A stretch of 45,920 bases of DNA from assembly GCA_945906715.1 (NCBI GenBank), contig CAMDRK010000001.1, forward strand, positions 1 through 45,920, read 5' to 3'. Shown piece by piece: positions 855 through 42,412 of this stretch. Made by a program: the position numbers and the translations under genes. This DNA is from Nitrospira lenta. Its GTDB lineage: Bacteria > Nitrospirota > Nitrospiria > Nitrospirales > Nitrospiraceae. Numbering within the stretch: position 1 is the first letter of the stretch; each line of letters opens with the position of its first letter. Below the pieces are notes generated by a model. That model searched no databases and had not been told where the DNA came from. It saw only the letters and a list, made by a program, of their open reading frames with translations.

Positions 855-881
855 GCAGTGAATCCTAGCAGGAGGCTAAAA

Positions 882-1000
882 CTGGTTCATCTGGTTGGTC
901 TGGTTGCTCTGGTTTGTTTATCTGGTTGATTTGGTTCTTCTGGTTTAGCTGGTTGGTCCGGTTCAACCAAATGAACGAAAAAAACCAAACAAACCAAAGC
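882..1000. repeat. periodic-repeat hairpin, CTGGTTnnn about 9-nt units (nonamer family)
   Basis: The left arm holds about 9-10 CTGGTT units (882-966). The shorter right arm is AACCAAA-rich (966-1000). Lies between divergent gpsA and the zinc-ribbon gene. Confidence 0.8.
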
Positions 1001-1143
1001 ACCCAGTCAAGAGCAGGCGGATTATAGGAACCGCTTCTTTCACCTGTCAATGAACGAGAGGCGGTCCTTGCAATCCATCACGACATGAGAGACTCCACTG
1101 CGCTAGCAAACCGACGCACTTCCGTGTAGCCTAGGAACGATCT

Positions 1144-1969: not shown

Positions 1970-3042
1970 AGTAAAGCCTCATGCGGCCGCATAGGCGCAT
2001 GAGGGTGCGTGAAAGAAACTGCGGACTCGCTGTGGCCGCTGTTGCAGGCTACGCAGGATGCCATGGGCGCGGGCTTTCAACTCCGTCTTCGTCCGGGCTG
2101 CGCCCCGGCCCAGTTTCCCTTTCACGTGCGCCCAGGCCAACTCGTCGGGATTCAGGTCGGGCGAATAGGGCGGCAGCACGTATAGCTCCAGCCGGCCGGC
2201 CTGCGCCGCGACAAACTGCTGCACCCGCTTGGCCTTGTGTGTGGGATGCCCATCCACAATGAGGACGATCTTGCGGGTCATACCGTGGATCAGTCGCCGC
2301 AGGAACTCACAGAAGACCACGGCGGTCACCCGGCGCTCAATGATCATGAAGCGACACTGCCCGTTCGCGTTGACAGCCGAAATCATGTTGAACCCAAATC
2401 GAGCGCCCGTGGTCTTGACCACCGGGGTCGTGCCCTTGAGCCCCCAGGTGGTGCCGGCAGGTGCATCGGAACGCACCCCCGATTCGTCGGCGAAGAAGAT
2501 GGCAGCTCCCTCCTGCTTGGCTTGCGCGACAATCGCGGGATAGGCCTCCGTTCGCCACCGCTTCACGAGGATCGGATCCTGTTGCCAAGCGCGATAGAGG
2601 GGACGCTGGGGGGTGAAACCCAGCCGCCCCATCAGGCGGCCCACTGAGACTTCCGATAGACGCACGCCAAACTGACGCCGGATCACTTCCCGAATGATCG
2701 TCAACGTCCACAGGGCATATTCGAACTGTAATTGCTGGGGCGTCTTCGTGCGTACGATGCGCGCCAGTCTGGCCATCTGCACACCAGTCAGCTTGGTCGG
2801 AGCGCCGGGGATGGGCTTGGCCTTCAACGCGTTCACGCCGCCCGTGTGGTAGGCCGCGAGCCATCGGTAGATCGTCCGCCGGTTGAGCCCCAGGCCAGCT
2901 CCCACGAACTCGGGACTTTCGCCCGCTTCAACCCGCTGCACGGCGCTCCGCCGCACTTGCTCCAGGGCCTGATGGGACAACGTCCGCGCATCGAACGTCT
3001 TCTTACATCGCATGCGTGCATATTAGCACATGAGGCTTTACT
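1970..3042 (-). mobile_element. IS630-family insertion sequence, apparently intact
   Basis: Terminal inverted repeat AGTAAAGCCTCATG (1970-1983) matches CATGAGGCTTTACT (3029-3042). A weaker, gapped match extends to about 1951 and about 3064 (CCTTA..TAAGC). The transposase stop lies inside the left IR. T/TA bases flank the left end, consistent with TA targeting, but the duplication is not clean. Confidence 0.7.
1979..3013 (-). CDS. IS630-family DDE transposase
   Basis: 344 aa with an N-terminal HTH region. The DDE triad context is FADESG ... VDGHPTH ... PPYSPDLNPDE (D,D,35E spacing typical of IS630/Tc1). The ORF is intact. Confidence 0.9.
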   Translation of the reverse strand: MRCKKTFDARTLSHQALEQVRRSAVQRVEAGESPEFVGAGLGLNRRTIYRWLAAYHTGGVNALKAKPIPGAPTKLTGVQMARLARIVRTKTPQQLQFEYALWTLTIIREVIRRQFGVRLSEVSVGRLMGRLGFTPQRPLYRAWQQDPILVKRWRTEAYPAIVAQAKQEGAAIFFADESGVRSDAPAGTTWGLKGTTPVVKTTGARFGFNMISAVNANGQCRFMIIERRVTAVVFCEFLRRLIHGMTRKIVLIVDGHPTHKAKRVQQFVAAQAGRLELYVLPPYSPDLNPDELAWAHVKGKLGRGAARTKTELKARAHGILRSLQQRPQRVRSFFHAPSCAYAAA

Positions 3043-3917: not shown

Positions 3918-4015
3918 CGTGAGACGTAAAACGTGAAACGTGAAACGTAGGACTATCAAGTGCCCGCCTTCCCGAGAAATCTTTACATTTCACGTTTCAC
4001 CTTTTACCTTTCACG
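3918..4015. repeat. periodic-repeat hairpin, GTGAAAC heptamer type
   Basis: CGTGAGACGTAAAACGTGAAACGTGAAACGTAGG, a loop of about 30 nt, then CTTTACATTTCACGTTTCACCTTTTACCTTTCACG. The right arm contains the stop of CDS 4004-5263. Confidence 0.85.
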
Positions 4016-5263
4016 CATCGTTGAGCATCCTGCGAGCTCACGCGCCAGCTCGCGGAGGAACGACGCGGCGTCCATGACCAGCCCGACAGCCTGAAAACTT
4101 CCTCGATCTGCAAGTTTCGTCGGGACAGCTGGATTGACATCGACGCAGACGGATGGGATCGTAGCAGGCAACAAATTACCCGTCGCCACCGCGTGCAGCG
4201 TCGAGGCGACGAGCAAAGCCATTCCGATACCGGGGATTGCCTCCCGCATGGCTGCCTGGGCTTCCAGTGAATCCGTAATCACGCCAGGCAATGGGCCGTC
4301 ATCGCGAATCGTACCGGCCATGACGACCTGGACACCCCGTCTGACACAGGCCGCCATAATTCCGGTCTTGATGACTCCTGACTTGACCGCTGCTTCGAAG
4401 CTGCCGATGGCCCTGATCCGATTAATGGTTCGCAGATGGTGTTCATGCCCATGCGGCACAACGCGGCCAGCCGCATGCCCGTAGCCGAGGGACGTGCCAT
4501 AGAGATCGACTTCCATATCATGAGCCGGCAGCGCATTCCCGCAGAACAAGACATGGATGAATTCTTCATCTATGAGCCATGCCAGAGCCTCGCGCCCACC
4601 GGCGTGAACGATCGCCGGGCCTCCCGCAAGCAGCACCTTGTTGCCGGCTTTCCCCTCACGGAATCCTATTCGCAACTGCACGAGACGCTTGGCGATGTCG
4701 CCGATGACGCGCCCATGAGGACGTTCGGATGAGACCTGCGATTCCATGAAGCTGAATACGTCGCGGTTACGTGGCCGTTGGAGCGGGATGACCCGCACAC
4801 CCTCACGGCCGATCACAACCTGATCTCCCTGCTTCACCTCTCCCATCGGAACAGTCCTCGCAGTCAGACGAACCGGGTACACGAGAATTCCCAGATCCAT
4901 CTCGATTCCCTCCACCTCCACCCACTGGTCACGCACTCGCACCTGGGTGGGTAAATGGGTGGTCGCGTAGAACTCCTCTGGAAAGATACCCTCCGCCGGC
5001 GCCGCCGCCAGCCGGCAATCCCGTTCATTCTCGACTGACGCACCGTGAGGTTGAATGGCATGAAGAATCTCGCTGAGCAGTTTCGCAGAGGAAGCCTGTA
5101 CCATGACTCTAGCCCGCGACGGCTCCTCGCGGGTCTTGCCAATCTGCATATCTTGAAGATCGAATGTTCCTCCCATCATCAAAATCGTGTCCAGCACCTT
5201 CGCCAGGATCAACGAGTCGATGATATGCCCTTGGAGTAGGACGGTTTCTTGATCATGTAACAT
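4004..5263 (-). CDS. LOR/SDH-domain protein (TIGR00300-like; ornithine cyclodeaminase-type domain of ArgZ/AgrE)
   Basis: 419 aa. N-terminus is LLQGHIIDSLILAKVLDTILMMGGTFDLQDMQIGK. The long C-terminal region carries GGPAIVHAGG and CGNALPAHDME. The family call is from memory of the LOR/SDH family, not from a search. Confidence 0.7.
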   Translation of the reverse strand: MLHDQETVLLQGHIIDSLILAKVLDTILMMGGTFDLQDMQIGKTREEPSRARVMVQASSAKLLSEILHAIQPHGASVENERDCRLAAAPAEGIFPEEFYATTHLPTQVRVRDQWVEVEGIEMDLGILVYPVRLTARTVPMGEVKQGDQVVIGREGVRVIPLQRPRNRDVFSFMESQVSSERPHGRVIGDIAKRLVQLRIGFREGKAGNKVLLAGGPAIVHAGGREALAWLIDEEFIHVLFCGNALPAHDMEVDLYGTSLGYGHAAGRVVPHGHEHHLRTINRIRAIGSFEAAVKSGVIKTGIMAACVRRGVQVVMAGTIRDDGPLPGVITDSLEAQAAMREAIPGIGMALLVASTLHAVATGNLLPATIPSVCVDVNPAVPTKLADRGSFQAVGLVMDAASFLRELARELAGCSTMRER

Positions 5264-5370: not shown

Positions 5371-5477
5371 TACAAGCTGCTCAAAATGGCCGCCCAACAA
5401 GGCCGCAGGCGAAAAGAAACCGGAGGCGTAGCCTCTCGGCTACGTTGAGGATTTGTTCGAGTCGAGAACGACGCTAT
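5371..5477 (-). repeat. P125 element, inverted orientation, one terminus missing
   Basis: ..AAGCTGCTCAAAATGGCCGCCCAACAAGGCCGCAGGCGA...GTAGCCTCTCGGCTAC.... It ends abruptly where the next copy starts. Confidence 0.8.
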
Positions 5478-5603
5478 GCAGGCTGCTCAAAATGCTCCGA
5501 TAGCAAGGCCGCAGGCGAGTGAACACCGGAGGCGTACCCTCTGGGTACGCTGAGGATTTTCACGACCCGAGAACGAAGCTAGCGGACATTTTCAGCAGCC
5601 TGC
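5478..5603 (-). repeat. P125 element, inverted orientation, full copy
   Basis: GCAGGCTGCTCAAAATGCTCC...GTACCCTCTGGGTAC...GGACATTTTCAGCAGCCTGC. It contains the last 8 sense codons and the TAG of truD. Confidence 0.85.
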
Positions 5604-7401: not shown

Positions 7402-8252
7402 CCAGGCACGAGAAATCCTGGCCCGATCAAGCCCGTTCCTTTATCGGATATTGTCTGAGCGAACCTCTCTACCGGCTCTTTAGTCTCGTTCCCGACTGGG
7501 AAGTGGGACTTTCCAGACACGAGATTTCACAACTCAGCTACGCTCACAACCCTTTGGCCGGTCGACGAGCCGTTCATCTGAGCGATCTGCATCTCGATCG
7601 TTATCTGCCACGGCACGATCGCATCGTCGCCACCGTCGGCGAGCTCCGACCCGACTGGATCTTTATCACCGGCGACCTGCTCAACGTGCCGGAGGGTCTA
7701 CCCCATGTATTTCGATTTCTCGCCGGCTTGCGCACAATTGCGCCGGTCTTCGTTACGTTGGGCAACCATGACCATTACAGCGGCGTGCCGATCGATCGAT
7801 ATTGCGAACTCGCCGATCGCCACAAGATCACCCTCTTGATCAATCAGACTACCTTCATTTCCACAGACGGCGGCGAGATCGCCATTGTCGGCGTCGACGA
7901 TCCCTCATTGCATCGGGCCGACTTGCGCTGCCTCCCGCCTCGCGCAAAGGACAGATACGTCCTCTTGCTGGCCCATGCGCCGAACATCCTCGACCAGCTG
8001 GAAGACCACCACTCCGTCGATCTGATCCTCTGCGGGCACAGTCACGGAGGCCAGTGGCGCATACCGGGCGTACCGACGTTCTGGCTCCCGCCCGGATGCA
8101 ATGGGCGGATCGATGGACATCACGGAAAGCCTGGCCGCCAGCTCTATGTCAATCGTGGGCTCGGATGGTCGTTTCTTCCGCTGCGGTGGAATTGCACACC
8201 GGAAATCGCCTGCGTTGAATGGGTCAACGAACAGGCTCACCCAGCAGGCTGA
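7398..8252 (+). CDS. calcineurin-like metallophosphoesterase
   Basis: All four motifs are present: LSDLHLD, ITGDLLN, TLGNHD and CGHSHGGQ. Confidence 0.85.
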   Translation: MTRHEKSWPDQARSFIGYCLSEPLYRLFSLVPDWEVGLSRHEISQLSYAHNPLAGRRAVHLSDLHLDRYLPRHDRIVATVGELRPDWIFITGDLLNVPEGLPHVFRFLAGLRTIAPVFVTLGNHDHYSGVPIDRYCELADRHKITLLINQTTFISTDGGEIAIVGVDDPSLHRADLRCLPPRAKDRYVLLLAHAPNILDQLEDHHSVDLILCGHSHGGQWRIPGVPTFWLPPGCNGRIDGHHGKPGRQLYVNRGLGWSFLPLRWNCTPEIACVEWVNEQAHPAG

Positions 8253-8316
8253 AGGCCGAAGGCCGGGATTCGAAAGTTCGAACACTTCAGCCTTCGGTCT
8301 TCAGCCTACAGCCTGC
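8244..8316. repeat. periodic-repeat hairpin, CTGAAGG heptamer type
   Basis: GCAGGCTGAAGGCCGAAGGCCGGG, a loop, then TTCAGCCTTCGGTCTTCAGCCTACAGCCTGC. Lies between convergent genes. The TGA of the phosphoesterase is in the left arm. Confidence 0.85.
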
Positions 8317-8342
8317 TTCGCCTATTCGAAACGATTCCATAA

Positions 8343-8975
8343 CTACTTGATCCGCTCCAGCGCTTCCTTAGATCGGCTCCTGACAGTTTGATCCCAATCC
8401 TCCTTCATGACAGTCGTCAGCTTCTCCTTCGCCTCACCGGCGCGCAAACGGCCCAATCCCAACGCCGCACTGGAACGGACATAGGCATGCTCGTCCTCCA
8501 ACGCCTTCAGTAGAAGAGGGATCACGGTTCTATCGTTCAGAGCCCCAAGGTAACTGGCCGCCATGCCTCGAATCCGGTGCCGCTCATCACCCAATGCCCG
8601 CTGCAGCGTCATCGCAAAGAGGTCTCGTAATCCTGGTATCGCTGACTCCAACCCATCGGCTCGATACTCATTCACCTCCATCACCGCAAAGGCGATCTCC
8701 AGCTTCTTCTCTTGTATCGTGGCCCGTTCGAACGCAACCAACAACTTCGCGCGTTCCCGCCGTTGCGCCCTGCGGCGGTTGATCGCCCGGATCAACAGAA
8801 ACAGCCCCGCCGCAATCACCAATCCCGCAAACGCCACGGGAATAGCTTGATCGATCACATAGTCCTGGGTATCGAACGATAGACGCTTCCACCCCCAGAC
8901 GCCGGCAATCACGATACCGAGGACAACCCCGATGGCAATCAGATTGGTCTGGCCCGATTCAGAACGAGTGCTCAT
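8343..8975 (-). CDS. membrane-anchored HEAT-repeat protein
   Basis: Start set at ATG 8975 (MSTRSESGQTNLIAIGVVLGIVIAGVWGW, a TM segment). C-terminal HEAT-like repeats read YLGALNDRTVIPLLLKALEDEHAYVRSSAALGLG. The upstream extension in the track has poor coding character. Confidence 0.7.
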   Translation of the reverse strand: MSTRSESGQTNLIAIGVVLGIVIAGVWGWKRLSFDTQDYVIDQAIPVAFAGLVIAAGLFLLIRAINRRRAQRRERAKLLVAFERATIQEKKLEIAFAVMEVNEYRADGLESAIPGLRDLFAMTLQRALGDERHRIRGMAASYLGALNDRTVIPLLLKALEDEHAYVRSSAALGLGRLRAGEAKEKLTTVMKEDWDQTVRSRSKEALERIK

Positions 8976-10260
8976 GGGGATGGCATCATAACAGGATGGG
9001 AGGGGTGGAAGGGAGGGGCCAGGTGGGGAGTGGCGAGGCAGCTGGCATGGTCTCTGTGCTCGCAGAGCCCCCACGATAAAGCGGTGGTCGCTCGATGCGC
9101 GCAGTGGAGGCCACACCAGCCGCCTCGCTGAATGCGTGTAAAGAATTGAGTTCACCCGAGATAGCACGTTCATGAATCGTGAACAACGTGATTTAGTGAA
9201 CGGAACCGACTAAATCAACCCCGACAGCGACTAGAATTCGCCATTGGCGCGGAGGAGGAGCTGAAAGAGGTCGTCGAGACGGCGTCGGAAGACGGCTTGC
9301 GACATTTTATTTGGCGGCCGACTAGAAATGCCTCACGGTCACTACACTTCTTCTTTTACCGAGTTATGGCCATGCCTGGCTCTGCGGTTGATAGAGATAC
9401 TTCTGGAGGGCCACGAAGACGTTTCCGTTGGGCCGACCTGCAAGTCCTGGAAGAAGACCGGACCGCTCCTCGCCGATCGTAAAACACTGCCAGACCTTCG
9501 AGTTCTAATTCAAGACTTCGTGGACGGCAGTGCAAGCTCAAGCAATGACCCCCACGAATTTTCCCCTCAGCCGGTCTCCAACAACCCTGTGGTTGTTCCC
9601 TTTAGGGAAGGGGCTCGCCCGACAAGAGCCGTTGCGTCTGGATGATCGCCTCCAGCAATGCGCTCCGTTCCTCTTGCAGCTTCTTCGAAGGCGGCACGCG
9701 CGCCACAAATCGTTCCGCCGCTACCGCCAAGGCCTGCAACGTCTCGGCCATGTCCCCCTGCCTTGGGGCAGGCGACAACAAGGCTTCACGTAACAGCGCG
9801 CGCCTCCTCCTGGGCCCAACATACATCTGCGGGGCGGTCGGGTTATCTTTTTCCAACTCGGGTCGTCGAAATACCGCCATAGCTCCTCCAACGCATCAGA
9901 CAACGAGAAATAATCCGCACACTGTACTCGATTCGCGTCGGCAATTGCATCGGGGCGTGAGCACAGGGGGAATAGGGTGCCAAGCGGTGCAGCAGAATTT
10001 CTGATGTGGACGATGCGTGAGACGGCGCGACTGGCGGAAAGGATTCCGATTAAGTAGCCTGGTTTCTTTTACCTCTCCCAACGGTCAATGACCGATGGCA
10101 AGACCCGACCCAGATGTTGCCGGTCAAGAGCAACTGGGTGGCAGGAATCGGTGATGCCTGCCCGCCCTCAGGGGAGAAGATAGAGAAAACGTGGGCTGTG
10201 CGGCGGGAAAAGACTCCCGACCTCGCTTTCTTTTCCCTGGTACATTTTCTTTCTCATTTA

Positions 10261-11877: not shown

Positions 11878-11961
11878 TTGGTCTGTCTAGTTGGCCAGAT
11901 CGGGAACCTCACCAGAGAAACCAGACAGATCAGATAGACCAAATAGACAAGAGAGACAAGG
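11878..11961. repeat. periodic-repeat hairpin, nonamer family, right-arm dominant
   Basis: TTGGTCTGTCTAGTTGGCC ... ACCAGAGAAACCAGACAGATCAGATAGACCAAATAGACAAGAGAGACAAGG. Confidence 0.75.
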
Positions 11962-11976
11962 ATCGAGGGGCTCCCC

Positions 11977-12619: not shown

Positions 12620-12964
12620 CTAGGCTTTCTCGCCAAGGGCTTCGAGGAGGCGGTCGATCTTTTGTTTCAGAACCGGCAAGTCTCGTTCGACCACATCCCA
12701 CACCAGTTGCAAATTGACTCCAAAATAATCGTGAATCAGTTTATCTCTCATGCCGGCGATGGGCTTCCACGCTATGTCAGAGTGAGCCTCTTTCAGCGTG
12801 ACGGATACGCGCTTGATTGCTTCCCCGATGATTTCGAGGTTACGCACAACCGCATCTTGGGTCTTTCGGTCGGAAAAGAAGCTCTCCTTTCCTGTTGCTG
12901 TATAGCTCATGATGTGCTGAATGGCGTCTCGAACGTGCAGGAGATAGATGCGGTCGTCCTTCAT
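12620..12964 (-). CDS. hepT: HepT-like (DUF86) toxin, HEPN RNase
   Basis: Carries the Rx4HxY motif in GMRDKLIHDYFGV. 114 aa. Its ATG overlaps the mntA stop by 4 nt. Confidence 0.85.
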   Translation of the reverse strand: MKDDRIYLLHVRDAIQHIMSYTATGKESFFSDRKTQDAVVRNLEIIGEAIKRVSVTLKEAHSDIAWKPIAGMRDKLIHDYFGVNLQLVWDVVERDLPVLKQKIDRLLEALGEKA

Positions 12965-13251
12965 AGAGGGACAGCTTCGGCATGGATTCGCTGCTCAAGG
13001 TATGGACTCAGGCCCTGATCGGTGAGGATATCGACTTTGCGCTGTAGTAATGTTTCGAGGTCTTGGCTGAGTTCGATGAGATCCAGCAAGCTACGCCCAT
13101 TATCCATCTCAACAAGGAAGTCGACATCGCTTTCCGGACGCGCCTCCCCTCTTGCCACAGACCCAAAGATCCGCACGTTGTGGGCTCCGTGTGCCTGCGC
13201 GAGGCGCAGTATTTCCGGCCGTTTGAATTTGAGCAAGTCTGCGATACCCAT
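12961..13251 (-). CDS. mntA: MntA-like nucleotidyltransferase antitoxin
   Basis: Carries FGSVARGEARPESDVDFLV (GSxxRG...SDxD). Start set at ATG 13251 (96 aa). The 254-aa track ORF runs upstream through non-coding repeat units. Confidence 0.85.
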   Translation of the reverse strand: MGIADLLKFKRPEILRLAQAHGAHNVRIFGSVARGEARPESDVDFLVEMDNGRSLLDLIELSQDLETLLQRKVDILTDQGLSPYLEQRIHAEAVPL

Positions 13252-13426
13252 TTTACGCTCCCTGAGAAGTATCTCGTCCTTGGAGGATACTGATTTACTC
13301 ACGGCCTGACAAGCAGTACTTGCTAAGCGTTGAGGCTCAGGAGTGCGCGCGTTCCTTCGGAAGGTCTTGGAACGACGCTTTTCCAATTCGCTATGCCTCA
13401 CTCTAGGGGATCGGCCGAGGTTGTCT

Positions 13427-13973
13427 TTTACTGCGCGCATCGAGCGATATACATGTTCCCTCCAAGCTTGCTCGTTTCTCTCTAGGGATGGGGGCTGACG
13501 GATCTTCCACTGCGCGCGTCCAACGAGGGCCTTCTCAGGCCGCGCGTTGCGCGAGCACAGAAGATCATCAGGCTCCATCCCCTCCTCTGTTCTGCGAGCA
13601 AGAAGGGCACCTGGCCACTCCTTCTCATCCCTCCAGGCTTGTTTACTGTACCTCTCTGGGAATGGCACTCGTAGTGGTCCAACTGCGCACGTCGAGCGAG
13701 CACATTCCGATCGTGCGCGCTCCACCTTCTACTTGGAGGGCGGGCTAGATGGTCTCCCACTGCGCGTGTCCAACGAGGGGTTTCTGAGGCCGCGCGTTGC
13801 ACGAGCACAGGAGACCGTCTAGCCTGACCTCTCATGCTCCCTCCAAGCTCGCTCGCTATTTTCTCAGGGATGGGGCCTGATTGATCTTCCACTGCGCGCG
13901 TCCAACGAGGGCCTTCCCAGGCCGCGCGTTGCGCGAGCACAGAAGATCATCAGGCCCCATCCCCTCCCCCTCT
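13427..13973 (+). repeat. tandem array of CACTGCGCGC-core palindromic elements (family PCORE)
   Basis: Three full A-type units lie at about 13452-13583, 13740-13825 and 13834-13973. Their core is CCACTGCGCG(C/T)GTCCAACGAGGG-N-GGCCGCGCGTTGC(G/A)CGAGCACAG. B-type variants lie at about 13427-13450 and 13660-13735 (ACTGCGC(G/A)C(A/G)TCGAGCGA). A shared leader CATG(T/C)TCCCTCCAAGCT(T/C)GCTCG is seen twice. Confidence 0.85.
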
Positions 13974-14008
13974 TGAATCTTCGTCCTAGTACGGACTACT
14001 CTTCCGCT

Positions 14009-15248: not shown

Positions 15249-15330
15249 CCTGTCTGTCTTGTTCATTTGGTCTGTCCGGTCTGTCTGGTTTGTGGACCAG
15301 ATAGACGGAATAGACCAGACAGACTGGTCC
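15249..15330. repeat. periodic-repeat hairpin, nonamer family
   Basis: CCTGTCTGTCTTGTTCATTTGGTCTGTCCGGTCTGTCTGGTTTGTGG / ACCAGATAGACGGAATAGACCAGACAGACTGGTCC. Lies between convergent genes. Confidence 0.85.
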
Positions 15331-20031: not shown

Positions 20032-20448
20032 CTAGGATTTACGTTTGAGGTGGTGGAGGAAGTTCGTCACGGAAACGATCTCGACCGAATCAACCTTGTG
20101 GAGGGAAAGCAGGTCATTGTCCCCACTGACAAGCCAGGGCACTCTTCCCGATATCGCACAGGCAAGAAATTTCATGTCGTCTGGATCTCTCAGTGTTGGG
20201 ACCGAGATGGGTTTTGCCCGAACGGTGTCAACAAAAGGGAGGAGATCTTCTTCAATGAGGCCGACAATCTCCGAACTCGTAAGCTTGAATTTGGGATAGG
20301 CCAGCACACGAATATATTCTTCCAGTATCTCGGCTGAGACGACTGGGCAGAGACGACCACCTTGCCAAGCTGGAACAAGCTGAGAGGGAGGACCGGTGAA
20401 CAGTAGAGCCGAAACGAGGACGTTGGTGTCCAGGACAGCTCGGATCAC
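20032..20448 (-). CDS. PIN-domain toxin (VapC-like)
   Basis: Contains VLDTNVLVSAL ... DPDDMKFLACA ... LVSGDNDLL. GTG 20448 overlaps the antitoxin stop (GTGA). The track start at 20478 is an alternative. Confidence 0.8.
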   Translation of the reverse strand: MIRAVLDTNVLVSALLFTGPPSQLVPAWQGGRLCPVVSAEILEEYIRVLAYPKFKLTSSEIVGLIEEDLLPFVDTVRAKPISVPTLRDPDDMKFLACAISGRVPWLVSGDNDLLSLHKVDSVEIVSVTNFLHHLKRKS

Positions 20449-20693
20449 CGCCGCCGCCGCCCTTGCCCCCTGGCCCACTGAATGGCCTGGCCGATGTCAG
20501 AAGACTTGATCCCCAGATCGCGTATTTTCTTTCGGATGGTCGCGAGCCGACTCCCATGCTCTGCGACAGTGACCGGTCGGAGCACCACGTTTCCTTCCCG
20601 TAGGGACACATCGAAGTAGTCGGTGTCCGGTATCTCGCTCAGAATCTTCTTCGGCAACGTCACTTGGTTCTTCGATGTCTTCTTGGCTAACAT
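20445..20693 (-). CDS. AbrB/SpoVT-type antitoxin (VapB-like)
   Basis: MLAKKTSKNQVTLPKKILSEIPDTDYFDV is a swapped-hairpin-type N-terminus. Start set at ATG 20693. Confidence 0.75.
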   Translation of the reverse strand: MLAKKTSKNQVTLPKKILSEIPDTDYFDVSLREGNVVLRPVTVAEHGSRLATIRKKIRDLGIKSSDIGQAIQWARGQGRRRR

Positions 20694-20842
20694 GGGCCGT
20701 ACCTCCGGAAATTCAGAATATCTTACTTCCTTACTATAAGGCAACTGAACGCCTATCGCCCTGCAGTTTAGCAGCTTCCGGAAGCTGCTATGCCGGCGGT
20801 GCGCCGCACCACCTGGTCGATCGACACCATTTCTTACTCAAC

Positions 20843-20972
20843 GGTCCCTCTCAAGCTCGCTCGTTATCCTCTTTTAGGGGTGGCCTGGGTTGGTCCCCAA
20901 CTGCGCGCATCGGACGAGCACAGTTTTATCGTGCGCGTTCTGCGAGCACGGGGGACCAACCAGGTTACCCCT
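20843..20972 (+). repeat. PCORE element, B-type, single copy
   Basis: Leader GGTCCCTCTCAAGCTCGCTCG, then AGGGGTGGCCTGGGTTGGTCCCC-AACTGCGCGCATCGGACGAGCACAG..GTGCGCGTTCTGCGAGCACG-GGGGACCAACCAGGTTACCCCT. Ends at the stop of the EcsC-like gene. Confidence 0.8.
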
Positions 20973-23527: not shown

Positions 23528-23546
23528 AAAAAAACCTCCTCTTTAT

Positions 23547-23684
23547 GGTCTATCTGGACTATCCAGTCGGTCTGGTCTGTCTTGTTTATTTGGTTTGTTT
23601 GGCTTGTCTTGTTTATTTGGTTGAATCAGACCAACTCGATGAACTAACCAAACCAAATAGACCAGATCAACCAGACAAACCAGG
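23547..23684. repeat. periodic-repeat hairpin, nonamer family, with conserved central core
   Basis: Long GGTCT/GTTTG-type left arm (23547-23629), then core TTTGGTTGAATCAGACCAACTCGATGAACTAACC, then right arm AACCAAACCAAATAGACCAGATCAACCAGACAAACCAGG. Lies between divergent genes. Confidence 0.85.
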
Positions 23685-23741: not shown

Positions 23742-24086
23742 ATGTCTGAACTGACTGCTCCCCCAACCGATCATACCTTGGCGCTTCGAGAGGAATTTCG
23801 CCATCACCTCGAAATGTTCTATGCCCAGCTCAAGCTGGCGCCGCCCTATGAGAGCGTGGAGAAGGCCATTCGTTCCCTCACGACTTCGATCCACGCTCTG
23901 CCGCCGTTGGAACGAGCGAGCCTGGCCACCGATGCTACAGCGCGCTGGCAGCATTTTCGCCAGGCCTTTGAATCGTCCGGGCTCAGCAAGAAACATCGAG
24001 GCATCATCGCCGGTCTCGCCCGCAACCGGTCCAGCCTGAATCTTCCTGCCGAATATGATCTGTTCTTGAGTCTGTATCTCTCCTGA
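23742..24086 (+). CDS. hypothetical protein
   Basis: 114-aa ORF with reasonable composition and no recognisable motifs. Flanked on both sides by nonamer-repeat hairpins. Confidence 0.45.
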   Translation: MSELTAPPTDHTLALREEFRHHLEMFYAQLKLAPPYESVEKAIRSLTTSIHALPPLERASLATDATARWQHFRQAFESSGLSKKHRGIIAGLARNRSSLNLPAEYDLFLSLYLS

Positions 24087-24087
24087 A

Positions 24088-24198
24088 TTGGTCTGTCTGG
24101 TCTGTTCGGTCTATCTGGTCTATTCGGTCTGTCTGGTTGCATGAGACTAACCAGATCGACCAGACAGACAAGAAAGACCGAACAGACCAGACAGACCC
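24088..24198. repeat. periodic-repeat hairpin, nonamer family, most regular copy
   Basis: Left arm is five 9-nt units: GGTCTGTCT GGTCTGTTC GGTCTATCT GGTCTATTC GGTCTGTCT GGTT. The loop is GCATGAGACT. The right arm is AACC AGATCGACC AGACAGACA AGAAAGACC GAACAGACC AGACAGACC. Confidence 0.9.
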
Positions 24199-25060: not shown

Positions 25061-25792
25061 ATGGATTTAGCGAAGGTCGAGCGCGTCTATACCTCGTACG
25101 CCAAGATCTACGATCGAATTTTCGGAAAGGTGTTTCACGAAGGACGCCAGTCGGTGATTCGCAACCTGGACGTCCAGCCGGACGAAGAAATTCTCGAAGT
25201 GGGAGTCGGGACCGGGCTGGCCCTGCCGATGTACCCCCGCCATTGTCGGATCGTCGGGATCGACTTCTCAGAAGGGATGCTGGACCAAGCAAAGCAGAAA
25301 GCCGCAGAATACCAAATGGACCATGTGCAACTGCACCGAATGGATGCCGGCGCAATGGATTTCAAAGACGATAGTTTCGACACAGTTGTCGCAGCCTACG
25401 TCGTCACCGCTGTCCCCGACTATCGCAAGGTCGTCAGTGAAATGATCCGCGTCTGCCGACCAGGCGGACGGATCATTATGCTGAATCACTTCGCCAACGA
25501 CAATAAAATCATCGCCGCTATCGAAAAAGTGCTGTCCCCCATCACGAAGAACTTAGGGTGGCGCACAGACCTGGCCCTCCAGACCGTGCTGGAAGGAACG
25601 CCCCTGCACGTCGCTCGGAAACAGAATGTGAATCCGATGCGGCTCTGGGCTTTGGTGGAATGTGTGAACGGAAAGAACGGGAACGGGAAGACCCACATCA
25701 ACGGTGCGAAAAACGGAAACGGCTCCGCAGCCTACGCACATATCAACGGCACGCGTCTCTCGGAACAGGCCAGCGGACAGGCGCTGGGCTAG
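25061..25792 (+). CDS. class I SAM-dependent methyltransferase, phospholipid N-methyltransferase (PmtA)-like, with an Asn/Gly-rich tail
   Basis: Motif I is ILEVGVGTGLAL. The N-terminus YAKIYDRIFGKVFHEGR resembles PmtA-type enzymes (from memory). The C-terminal tail is NGKNGNGKTHINGAKNGNGSAAYAHING. Confidence 0.8.
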   Translation: MDLAKVERVYTSYAKIYDRIFGKVFHEGRQSVIRNLDVQPDEEILEVGVGTGLALPMYPRHCRIVGIDFSEGMLDQAKQKAAEYQMDHVQLHRMDAGAMDFKDDSFDTVVAAYVVTAVPDYRKVVSEMIRVCRPGGRIIMLNHFANDNKIIAAIEKVLSPITKNLGWRTDLALQTVLEGTPLHVARKQNVNPMRLWALVECVNGKNGNGKTHINGAKNGNGSAAYAHINGTRLSEQASGQALG

Positions 25793-25916
25793 CAGGCCGT
25801 TGAAAAAGCCCGCCAGCTTCGTTCTCGCATCGTTCAGACCCTCAACGTACCCCAAGGGTACGCCTCGGCCCTTCACTCGCTGCGGCCTCGCTGAACAGTC
25901 TTTTTGAACAGCCTGC
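25792..25916 (+). repeat. P125 element, full copy
   Basis: GCAGGCCGTTGAAAAAGCCCGCCAGCTTCGTTCTCGCATCG...GTACCCCAAGGGTAC...CTTTTTGAACAGCCTGC. Starts on the G of the methyltransferase TAG and is followed directly by a nonamer hairpin. Confidence 0.85.
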
Positions 25917-25999
25917 TTACTTGGTTCATTTGGTTTGTTTAGTTCGTCGAGCTGGCCCGATTCAACCAAATAAACAAGACAAACCAAAGAGACTAAATA
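25917..25999. repeat. periodic-repeat hairpin, nonamer family, core inverted relative to 23547-23684
   Basis: TTACTTGGTTCATTTGGTTTGTTTAGTTCGTCGAGCTGGCCCGATTCAACCAAATAAACAAGACAAACCAAAGAGAC. It directly abuts a P125 copy. Confidence 0.8.
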
Positions 26000-37208: not shown

Positions 37209-37220
37209 CACGCTGCTGAT

Positions 37221-37347
37221 GGGCTCGCTGTGTACGTCATCTTAGGATGGTCCGGTGAGTCCCCCACTGCGCGCGTCCAACGAGGGTCTTCTGAGACCGC
37301 GCGTTGCGCGAGCACAGGGGACTCACCGGACCATCCCCCTTCTAAGG
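37221..37347 (+). repeat. PCORE element, A-type, single copy
   Basis: CTTAGGATGGTCCGGTGAGTCCCC-CACTGCGCGCGTCCAACGAGGGTCTTCTGAGACCGCGCGTTGCGCGAGCACAG-GGGACTCACCGGACCATCCCCCTTCTAAGG. The stop of the SLT gene lies in the right outer stem. Confidence 0.85.
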
Positions 37348-42265: not shown

Positions 42266-42288
42266 CCGAACACTTACCCCTTACGCTA

Positions 42289-42412
42289 GCAGGATGCTGA
42301 AAAAGTCCGCCAGCATCGTTCTCGCATCGCTCAGAGGCTCAACGTACCGAAGCGTACGCCTCGCCTCTTCGCTCGCTGCGGCCTTGCTGGACGGCCATTT
42401 TGAGCATCCTGC
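42289..42412 (+). repeat. P125 element, full copy
   Basis: GCAGGATGCTGAAAAAGTCCGCCAGCATCGTTCTCGCATCG...GTACCGAAGCGTAC...GGCCATTTTGAGCATCCTGC. Lies between dapA and dapB. Confidence 0.85.

Follow-up and report, generated by a model that had tools for sequence, protein, structure and literature searches.

Hairpin repeats of Nitrospira with a fixed irregular core on a basal stem of freely varying sequence

Several repeats in a 45,920-nt stretch of Nitrospira DNA, the whole of which is referred to here as the window, keep a nearly constant centre while the arms on either side of it differ from copy to copy and still pair with one another. This raises the question of what kind of element fixes its middle and leaves its stem free, and from where each copy obtains its stem. 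The initial annotation of the window named copies at 13484-13583, 13740-13825, 13866-13973 and 37241-37347, and a B-type copy at 20876-20972; these coordinates are correct, and the four arm pairs quoted with them are exact. With a covariance model built from 31 copies with different stems we count six full copies in the window, four of A-type, one of B-type and one further variant, alongside truncated pieces of the same hairpin repeat (Table 1). The A-type copies score 97-115 bits, the B-type copy 66 bits and the variant at 9027-9132 58 bits. The copies named in that annotation each fold into one long hairpin, with z-scores of -5.8 to -9.7 relative to shuffled sequences, and the 22-nt left part of the core occurs four times in the window against 0.01 occurrences expected by chance.

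Table 1. Hairpin-repeat features in the 45,920-nt window.
Feature	Position	Strand	Basis and remarks
C/T-rich 5' leader of A-type unit, GGGCTCGCTGTGTACGTCATCTTA	37221..37244	+	Within segment missing from empty site L123; GCTYGCTCG-type
Basal stem 5' arm, GGATGGTCCGGTGAGTCCCC	37245..37264	+	20/20 bases pair with 37317-37336; covarying helix 1
Conserved apical core	37265..37316	+	Fold, covariance model; unpaired bases invariant in 150 copies
Basal stem 3' arm, GGGGACTCACCGGACCATCC	37317..37336	+	Fold and covariance model
Enclosing B-type element, 5' part: basal arm then ACTGCGCGCATCGAGCGA	13405..13451	+	Consensus of 39 composites
A-type unit, dominant subfamily: leader 13452-13484, hairpin 13485-13581	13452..13581	+	Model, 97 bits
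Enclosing B-type element, 3' part: GTTCTGCGAGCA then basal arm	13589..13625	+	Composite consensus and fold
Truncated B-type element: basal 5' arm, core 5' half, part of 3' half	13658..13725	+	
A-type hairpin, stem GGGCGGGCTAGATGGTCTCC	13735..13831	+	Fold and model; L119 ortholog nearly identical
A-type unit: leader 13832-13866, hairpin 13867-13963	13832..13963	+	102 bits; missing in relative L119
B-type unit: leader 20846-20876, hairpin 20877-20971	20846..20971	+	Model; adjoins stop codon of EcsC-family gene
Core variant (B2-type), missed in the initial annotation	9027-9132	-	Model hit, 58 bits; fold z-score -5.2; element placed at 9033..9128

The hairpin is about 100 nt long and consists of a 52-nt irregular apical core carried on a basal stem of about 20 bp. 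From base to tip, the core at 37265-37316 comprises an internal loop (CAC/CA), a UGC/GCA helix, a G.A mismatch, a CGCG/CGCG helix, a UC bulge, a CAACG/CGUUG helix, an A.G mismatch and an apical stem-loop. The consensus for the basal half of the core is an internal loop of NAC (5') and CA (3'), the UGC/GCA helix, the G.A mismatch and a CGCR/YGCG helix, and for the tip half the UC bulge, an SAACG/CGUUS helix, the A.G mismatch and a variable apical stem-loop. Outside the hairpin are a C/T-rich 5' leader of 24-35 nt, in which AAGCTYGCTCG is often present, and a short C/T-rich tail; leaders of the GCTYGCTCG type are common to A-type and B-type units. The SLT gene on the minus strand has its stop codon (37342-37344) 5 nt past the 3' arm at 37317-37336, and the B2-type variant overlaps the N-terminal part of the HEAT-repeat ORF at 8343-9173. 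The truncated B-type element at 13658-13725 is without its 3' arm and falls in repeat families D6 and D14.

The B-type core is built from two tandem small hairpin-like halves of the form UGC-G-CG(loop)CG-A-GCA (TGCGCG..CGAGCA in DNA). These two related halves have the same orientation on one strand, and the long hairpin pairs their non-equivalent parts. The A-type core derives from the B-type core through pairing between the inner parts of its two halves. The centre had been described as nearly invariant across all five copies named at the outset; this holds for the A-type, while the B-type has in common with it only the junction motifs ACUGCGCGC, ACGAG, GCGCGUU and GCGAGCAC and not the whole core.

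To assess the fold we aligned 150 copies from Nitrospira genomes. Within this alignment 94.2% of the pair cells hold standard base pairs, against 72.5% after shuffling, and the observed pairing and covariation values were reached in none of 500 shuffles; when the partner was slid by one to three columns, pairing fell to 34-48%. The basal stem occurs in about 30 sequence versions, is 93% paired, and has changes on both sides at all 20 of its pairs. The bulged and mismatched bases of the core are by comparison invariant or nearly so (A39, C40, G45, U50, C57, A64, G201, G203 and A213), as is core helix 2, in which the window hairpin at 13735-13831 has a compensated CGUG/CACG change. The differences between A and B types in helix 3 are also compensated (CG in 105 copies versus GC in 43; AU in 136 versus GC in 11), with A-U alternating with G-C or G.U, and they therefore support the long-hairpin fold.

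The stems had also been called unrelated to each other. They are not all so: the stems of the copies at 13484 and 13866 are alike (95%). Many stems fit a loose GGGrTGG..CTG..TGrTCyyC pattern, which explains why arms swapped between copies still pair over 13.9 bp on average, compared with 20.4 bp for an arm and its own partner.

The genome scan fixed the left half of the core by design, and we therefore repeated the search in metagenomes using the right half only. This search matched more than 120 further stretches and gave 61 complete copies, in which the 19-nt left half has no mismatch in 40 copies, one in 17 and two in 4; the basal stems of these copies average 20.3 bp and form 27 arm clusters. 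The pattern of a fixed core on a free stem is thus repeated in an independently drawn sample and is not an artefact of ascertainment. The architecture proposed in the initial annotation, a fixed irregular core carried by a stem whose sequence is nearly free, is real.

When one genome of each prokaryotic species was scanned for the left core, at least 119 stretches matched, all of which belong to Nitrospira or Nitrospiraceae save for one chance match in a coding region; the first 80 loci alone represent at least 57 Nitrospira/Nitrospiraceae assemblies. Applied to 725 kb of Nitrospira loci, the covariance model gave 164 matches, often several per locus, of which a few are reverse-strand shadows of stronger ones. 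Nearly all copies lie between crude gene calls. None of the viral contigs scanned carries the core. The window has no match in Rfam at the gathering threshold, and in two permissive Rfam scans the only matches, to microRNA-hairpin models, a snoRNA and a viral intronic RNA, scored far below it. In the searchable literature on repeats, palindromes and MITEs of Nitrospira we found no description of this hairpin family, the nearest match being a generic palindrome-counting survey that lists N. moscoviensis; it is a kind of repeat not yet described for this genus.

Information on the source of the stems comes from orthologous sites. The SLT-glycerate kinase gene pair is syntenic in many Nitrospira, and this allowed us to compare the spacers between the two genes. 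In L123 the site is empty: the spacer is 15 nt long (TAG-TTCATCGCCAAT-GTG) and holds no palindrome, so that in the window and in L114 the leader and both arms belong to the insert. A second comparison is provided by the unit at 13832-13963, which is missing, leader, hairpin and both arms together, from L119, where the flanks are 95-97% identical. A third is a B-type unit that is present in L006 and missing, both arms included, in L065 and L050; its position is just 3' of an A-type hairpin, and the unit at 13832-13963 likewise lies 3' of the hairpin at 13735-13831. The empty site and the two absences of whole units indicate that the stems travel with the element. The L119 difference could reflect a deletion instead of an insertion. 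Loss of one L119 unit by core-to-core recombination was considered and rejected, as the element that remains there has matching arms and is no chimera. No consistent target sequence or target duplication emerges from the three comparisons, in all of which the sequence is C/T-rich and diverged; one unit is bounded by a CCCTCC-like repeat, and none is evident at the other two loci.

These sites bear directly on the notion that only the core is mobile and inserts into the loops of host palindromes that were there already, the outer stems being derived from the target. Units are indeed inserted within the apical loops of other repeat hairpins, and Nitrospira loci contain long hairpins that have short loops but lack the core. 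We nevertheless regard it as highly improbable: the three comparable loci contradict a target-site origin of the stems, identical stems recur at many unrelated loci, and an A-type stem without the core was found in none of 207 long hairpins. Pre-existing palindromes are accordingly rejected as the source of the stems by the empty sites in L123, L119 and L065/L050.

Copy-paste of whole units is real. The dominant stem version accounts for 42 of 104 copies, which lie at different loci and each have the same G:T wobble, G/G mismatch and T bulge. This runs against the opinion expressed in the initial annotation that mobile-element copy-paste could not give the pattern, an opinion further weakened by the whole unit that is present in the window and missing in a 97%-identical relative. 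New stems arise in at least two ways, by compensatory change in place and by recombination through the core. The first is seen in the orthologs L040 and L029, which differ by a G-C to A-T replacement, and the window copy differs from that of L004 by T-A to C-G; the second is seen in L006, L010, L048 and L056, where the two arms are chimeric and come from different subfamilies.

Copies also decay. In the SLT-glycerate kinase spacer of L120-122 the core has been deleted while the right arm and leader are kept, and this remnant is adjoined by a B-type unit and an unrelated hairpin repeat; in L124/125 and L045 other repeat families fill the spacer. The few bases past the SLT stop codon (window 37212-37341 and the spacers of L045, L114 and L120-L125) are a hot spot whose contents vary by genome, from 15 nt only through an intact A-type unit or decayed and added units to unrelated repeats. 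The core can persist without a stem, as orthologous core-only copies in L088 (2877-2930) and L111 (about 5041-5095) have a full A-type core without complementary basal arms.

Units are frequently found inside one another. In the consensus of 39 copies, the dominant A-type unit usually sits inside a B-type element, and the fold of the composite at 13405-13625 is a three-way junction, with the leader paired to the 5' half of the B-type element. In 20 metagenome cases B-type units lie inside the A-type apical loop, directly 5' of TTCTGAGGCC, and other apical-loop insertions are present in L003, L025 and L091. Nested and neighbouring units have the same orientation.

The two strands of the element are not equivalent. 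Among 34 independent stems, G:T and T:G wobbles on the plus strand number 43, against 19 A:C and C:A mismatches, and the basal stem is more stable on the plus strand in 84 copies versus 27. Mutational bias was judged an unlikely source of the G:T excess, since a bias in the other direction is predicted from the GC skew of the flanks. Co-orientation of neighbouring copies (48:4) persists where genes of either strand lie between them. By crude gene calls, the element is antisense to both of its flanking genes in 53 cases and in sense to both in 12, and the 118 fully classified contexts include 33 convergent and 20 divergent gene pairs. Rough 8-kb estimates place negative flanking GC skew on the element strand for about 72% of copies, in every gene context. 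The better-paired strand is the C-rich one and has the sequence of the nascent lagging strand. Co-orientation is a firm result; the gene calls and the 8-kb skew estimates are rough. These asymmetries suggest either a process that acts on one strand and depends on a regional property, for instance the direction of replication, or local copying in which orientation is kept.

If the core were a double-stranded DNA site bound by a host protein of high abundance (a nucleoid protein, regulator or topoisomerase, for example), the palindromic stems would be incidental. The core halves are direct repeats of each other and could then be read as a pair of half-sites in direct orientation, TGCGCG..CGAG(C/G)A, with a separation of about 31 bp; the elements lie between genes, some of them in divergent promoter regions, as at 13400-13975, where the repeats occupy the region between MNT/HepT genes and a MarR gene. 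However, such a site leaves the 20 covarying stem pairs, the strand-asymmetric wobbles and the co-orientation of neighbours unexplained, and the compensated changes between the core halves imply that pairing and not duplex sequence is conserved. We therefore consider it improbable.

The main rival to a mobile element is a structured RNA with a role in the cell, whether a cis-acting element that controls mRNA processing, mRNA stability or translation between cistrons, a small RNA present in many copies or a self-cleaving ribozyme of a new type. The core would then be a tertiary or protein-binding motif and the stem would be under structural selection. Strong covariation, invariant unpaired bases and a strand that favours G:U wobbles are all what such an RNA should display; copies occur directly after stop codons and within operons, and the three-way junction of the composite would also fit. 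At orthologous sites the core is more conserved than its flanks, which requires that copies be constrained once inserted, or undergo gene conversion, and would be compatible with a host function too. Against this, the better-folding strand is mostly antisense to both neighbours, by the 53 to 12 count given above, and operon transcripts should consequently carry mostly the other strand. We found no sigma-70-like promoter with the copies and no terminator-like site at the hairpins on either strand. At a given site units appear, disappear, become truncated or give way to unrelated repeats, and the genes remain undisturbed; no Rfam family matches, and six copies in 46 kb imply several hundred per genome if the window is typical. 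On balance we think a cellular RNA role unlikely, though it deserves to be taken seriously. The conserved motifs of the core do not seem to fit the K-turn, group II intron domain V or the twister, pistol and hairpin ribozymes.

The explanation that we favour, by a modest degree of belief, is a non-autonomous, strand-specific mobile hairpin element, comparable to REP, BIME and REPIN sequences in lifestyle and to the ends of single-strand transposons in logic, with the folded tip as its recognition site. This is close to the suggestion in the initial annotation of a protein-recognised core presented on a stem, to which it adds mobility. We infer recognition of a folded single strand, a protein partner and a link to replication. 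The moving unit would be the C/T-rich leader together with the hairpin of about 100 nt, and the apical core would be read by a trans-acting protein once one strand has folded. The fixed irregularities of the core are the 3x2 internal loop, G.A mismatch, UC bulge and A.G mismatch, and copies without the core would cease to propagate. The 20-bp basal stem would serve as a helix of free sequence that presents the core; it would travel with the element and define its subfamilies, drifting through compensatory and wobble changes and being reshuffled when copies recombine at their common core motifs. New units would insert into intergenic DNA rich in C and T, in many cases at an existing unit, either at its 3' foot or within its apical loop, and would take on its orientation; tandem and nested arrays would be built in this way.

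Several observations weigh against a mobile element of this kind. No mobilising enzyme was found in the approximately 0.95 Mb of Nitrospira DNA sampled, and the better-paired C-rich strand is opposite to the active strand of the IS608 model; the lack of a consistent target sequence and the higher conservation of the core than of its flanks at orthologous sites count against it as well. A tblastn search of those loci with E. coli RayT gave nothing better than E = 1, in a sampling that is far too thin to exclude a single-copy gene. All-against-all clustering of 796 ORFs from the loci recovered no recurrent neighbour gene beyond histidine kinases and response regulators, and the ORFs between neighbouring copies contain no recurring gene family.

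A more speculative possibility, which we rate as rather unlikely, is that the core is the handle of a mobilisation system not yet described, or a new catalytic or protein-guiding RNA motif. Three features depart from RAYT and IS608 systems: the ends have no repeats, units land in one orientation at the feet and in the loops of hairpins, and the strand that folds better matches the nascent lagging strand in sequence. All three would be compatible with a free single strand of the element being annealed into the replication fork by way of its C/T-rich leader and tail; this strand might be excised DNA, or cDNA of transcripts in which the element is mostly embedded in antisense.

Comparison with known systems places the repeat beside several named families and in none of them, since several of the features that define REPINs, MITEs, attC sites and terminators do not apply to it. 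It resembles the REP/BIME/REPIN-RAYT sequences of E. coli, Pseudomonas and Stenotrophomonas (SMAG) in being high-copy, extragenic, hairpin-forming and lineage-specific, in forming mosaic clusters, in having subfamily stems that differ by compensated changes, in persisting as populations by vertical descent, and in being enriched between convergent genes (33 of 118 contexts). As in REPs, these are high-copy, extragenic, imperfect palindromes, with six copies in 46 kb of the window and 150 model hits in 725 kb. REPs, however, conserve a GTAG tetranucleotide at the foot and have a short stem, whereas here conservation lies in the 52-nt apical core and the foot and basal stem vary. A REPIN consists of two REP units inverted around a spacer; the related core halves described here are in direct orientation, and the Nitrospira repeat adds the 20-bp stem of free sequence and the 5' leader and nests its units in loops. 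In REPIN systems the RAYT is a single-copy Y1 gene flanked by repeats, for which there was no tblastn match within the 0.95 Mb of loci.

Like the ends of IS200/IS605 elements and PATEs, and like IS91 and Helitrons, the repeat has no terminal inverted repeats and no clear target duplication, uses an irregular hairpin as its putative recognition element, is strand-specific and has strong orientation coherence. IS200/IS605 elements have distinct subterminal hairpins at their left and right ends, insert 3' of a defined short target, a tetranucleotide, and have an orientation tied to replication; the Nitrospira repeat has one large hairpin per unit, no such tetranucleotide was recognised in the three comparisons of filled and empty sites, and the better-paired strand is C-rich, contrary to expectation from IS608. 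No Y1 or Y2 HUH gene has been linked to this repeat. MITEs have terminal inverted repeats that are conserved from copy to copy and match those of an autonomous IS, and they have a target duplication of fixed length, whereas the arms here fall into 27-34 sequence clusters and the leader and tail are not inverted repeats of each other.

ERIC/IRU and Neisseria Correia (CREE/NEMIS) elements are similar in being intergenic imperfect palindromes of 100-150 bp that are co-transcribed with genes, but they are conserved along their whole length or at terminal inverted repeats, and the ends of the Nitrospira repeat vary; Correia elements also duplicate TA. Orientation-dependent effects of both on mRNA are known. 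Integron attC sites likewise act as folded single-strand recombination sites in which structure and a few extrahelical bases outweigh stem sequence. The initial annotation had rightly called the pattern the reverse of attC: the end boxes R''/L'' and L'/R' of attC are conserved and its centre is variable, while here the ends vary and the centre is fixed. An integrase or cassette context was not indicated, as no integrase domain occurs among the 30 window ORFs scanned. Intrinsic terminators consist of a G+C-rich hairpin followed by a U run; the tails of these hairpins are C/T-mixed on the plus strand and A/G-rich on the minus strand, and the hairpins coincide with no terminator-like site.

In soils, waters and treatment plants, Nitrospira are the main nitrite oxidisers and complete ammonia oxidisers. 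Should the window be typical, each of their genomes has, besides its several hundred units of this family, several other hairpin repeat families. These repeats shape intergenic regions, break assemblies and make false ORFs, two of which run through repeats in the window. The family separates the part that appears to be recognised, a fixed irregular tip, from a stem of free sequence that appears merely structural. The roughly 30 natural stem variants are a ready-made mutational series for a binding-protein search and for tests of hairpin recognition, and, as units grow by nesting and are strictly co-oriented, it can be tested directly how the spread of the repeats is linked to replication or transcription.

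Some ORFs of the window are lengthened or created by the repeats. ORFs cross repeats at 12961-13725, 13482-13940 and 8343-9173, all on the minus strand, and the first of these has a real domain match in its C-terminal third only. Toxin-antitoxin-type modules lie directly beside repeat clusters at 12620-13260 and 20032-20744 (both minus strand); one pairs a HepT-like RNase with a nucleotidyltransferase, and in the other a small ORF lies upstream of a PIN-domain protein. The only transposase in the window is an IS630-family DDE enzyme with DDE_3 and HTH domains (1979-3013, minus strand).

Other repeat families accompany the one described here. A separate hairpin family of about 125 nt with a CTAG end, GCTAGCAGGATGCTGAAAAAG...CTTTTTGAGCATCCTGC, is present at 1506-1636, 25788-25916 and 42285-42412, with a related sequence at 5373-5545; it is abundant in Nitrospira loci, often adjoins A-type units, fills the SLT-glycerate kinase spacer in L045 and is also there in L120-122. 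A MITE-like element of about 190-370 nt with conserved terminal inverted repeats (..CCCGCATTATTCATGA / TCATGAATAATGCGGG..) occurs in L124/L125 at 2040-2400 and in L006, L014, L017, L041 and L042, and fills the same spacer in some genomes. Hairpins with tandem arms of 9-nt units lie at window positions 876-1007, 11899-11966, 15252-15324, 23539-23680, 24082-24196 and 25905-25997; they have GGTCTGTCT or GGTTTGTTT on one arm and the complement on the other, with arms of up to 49 nt, and such hairpins recur in numerous Nitrospira loci, in one case (L025) within the apical loop of an A-type core. The hairpins at 3918-4015 and 8243-8317 also have periodic arms, with units of the CGTGAAA and GGCTGAAGGC types, and have relatives in several loci (L054, L057, L074 and L083).
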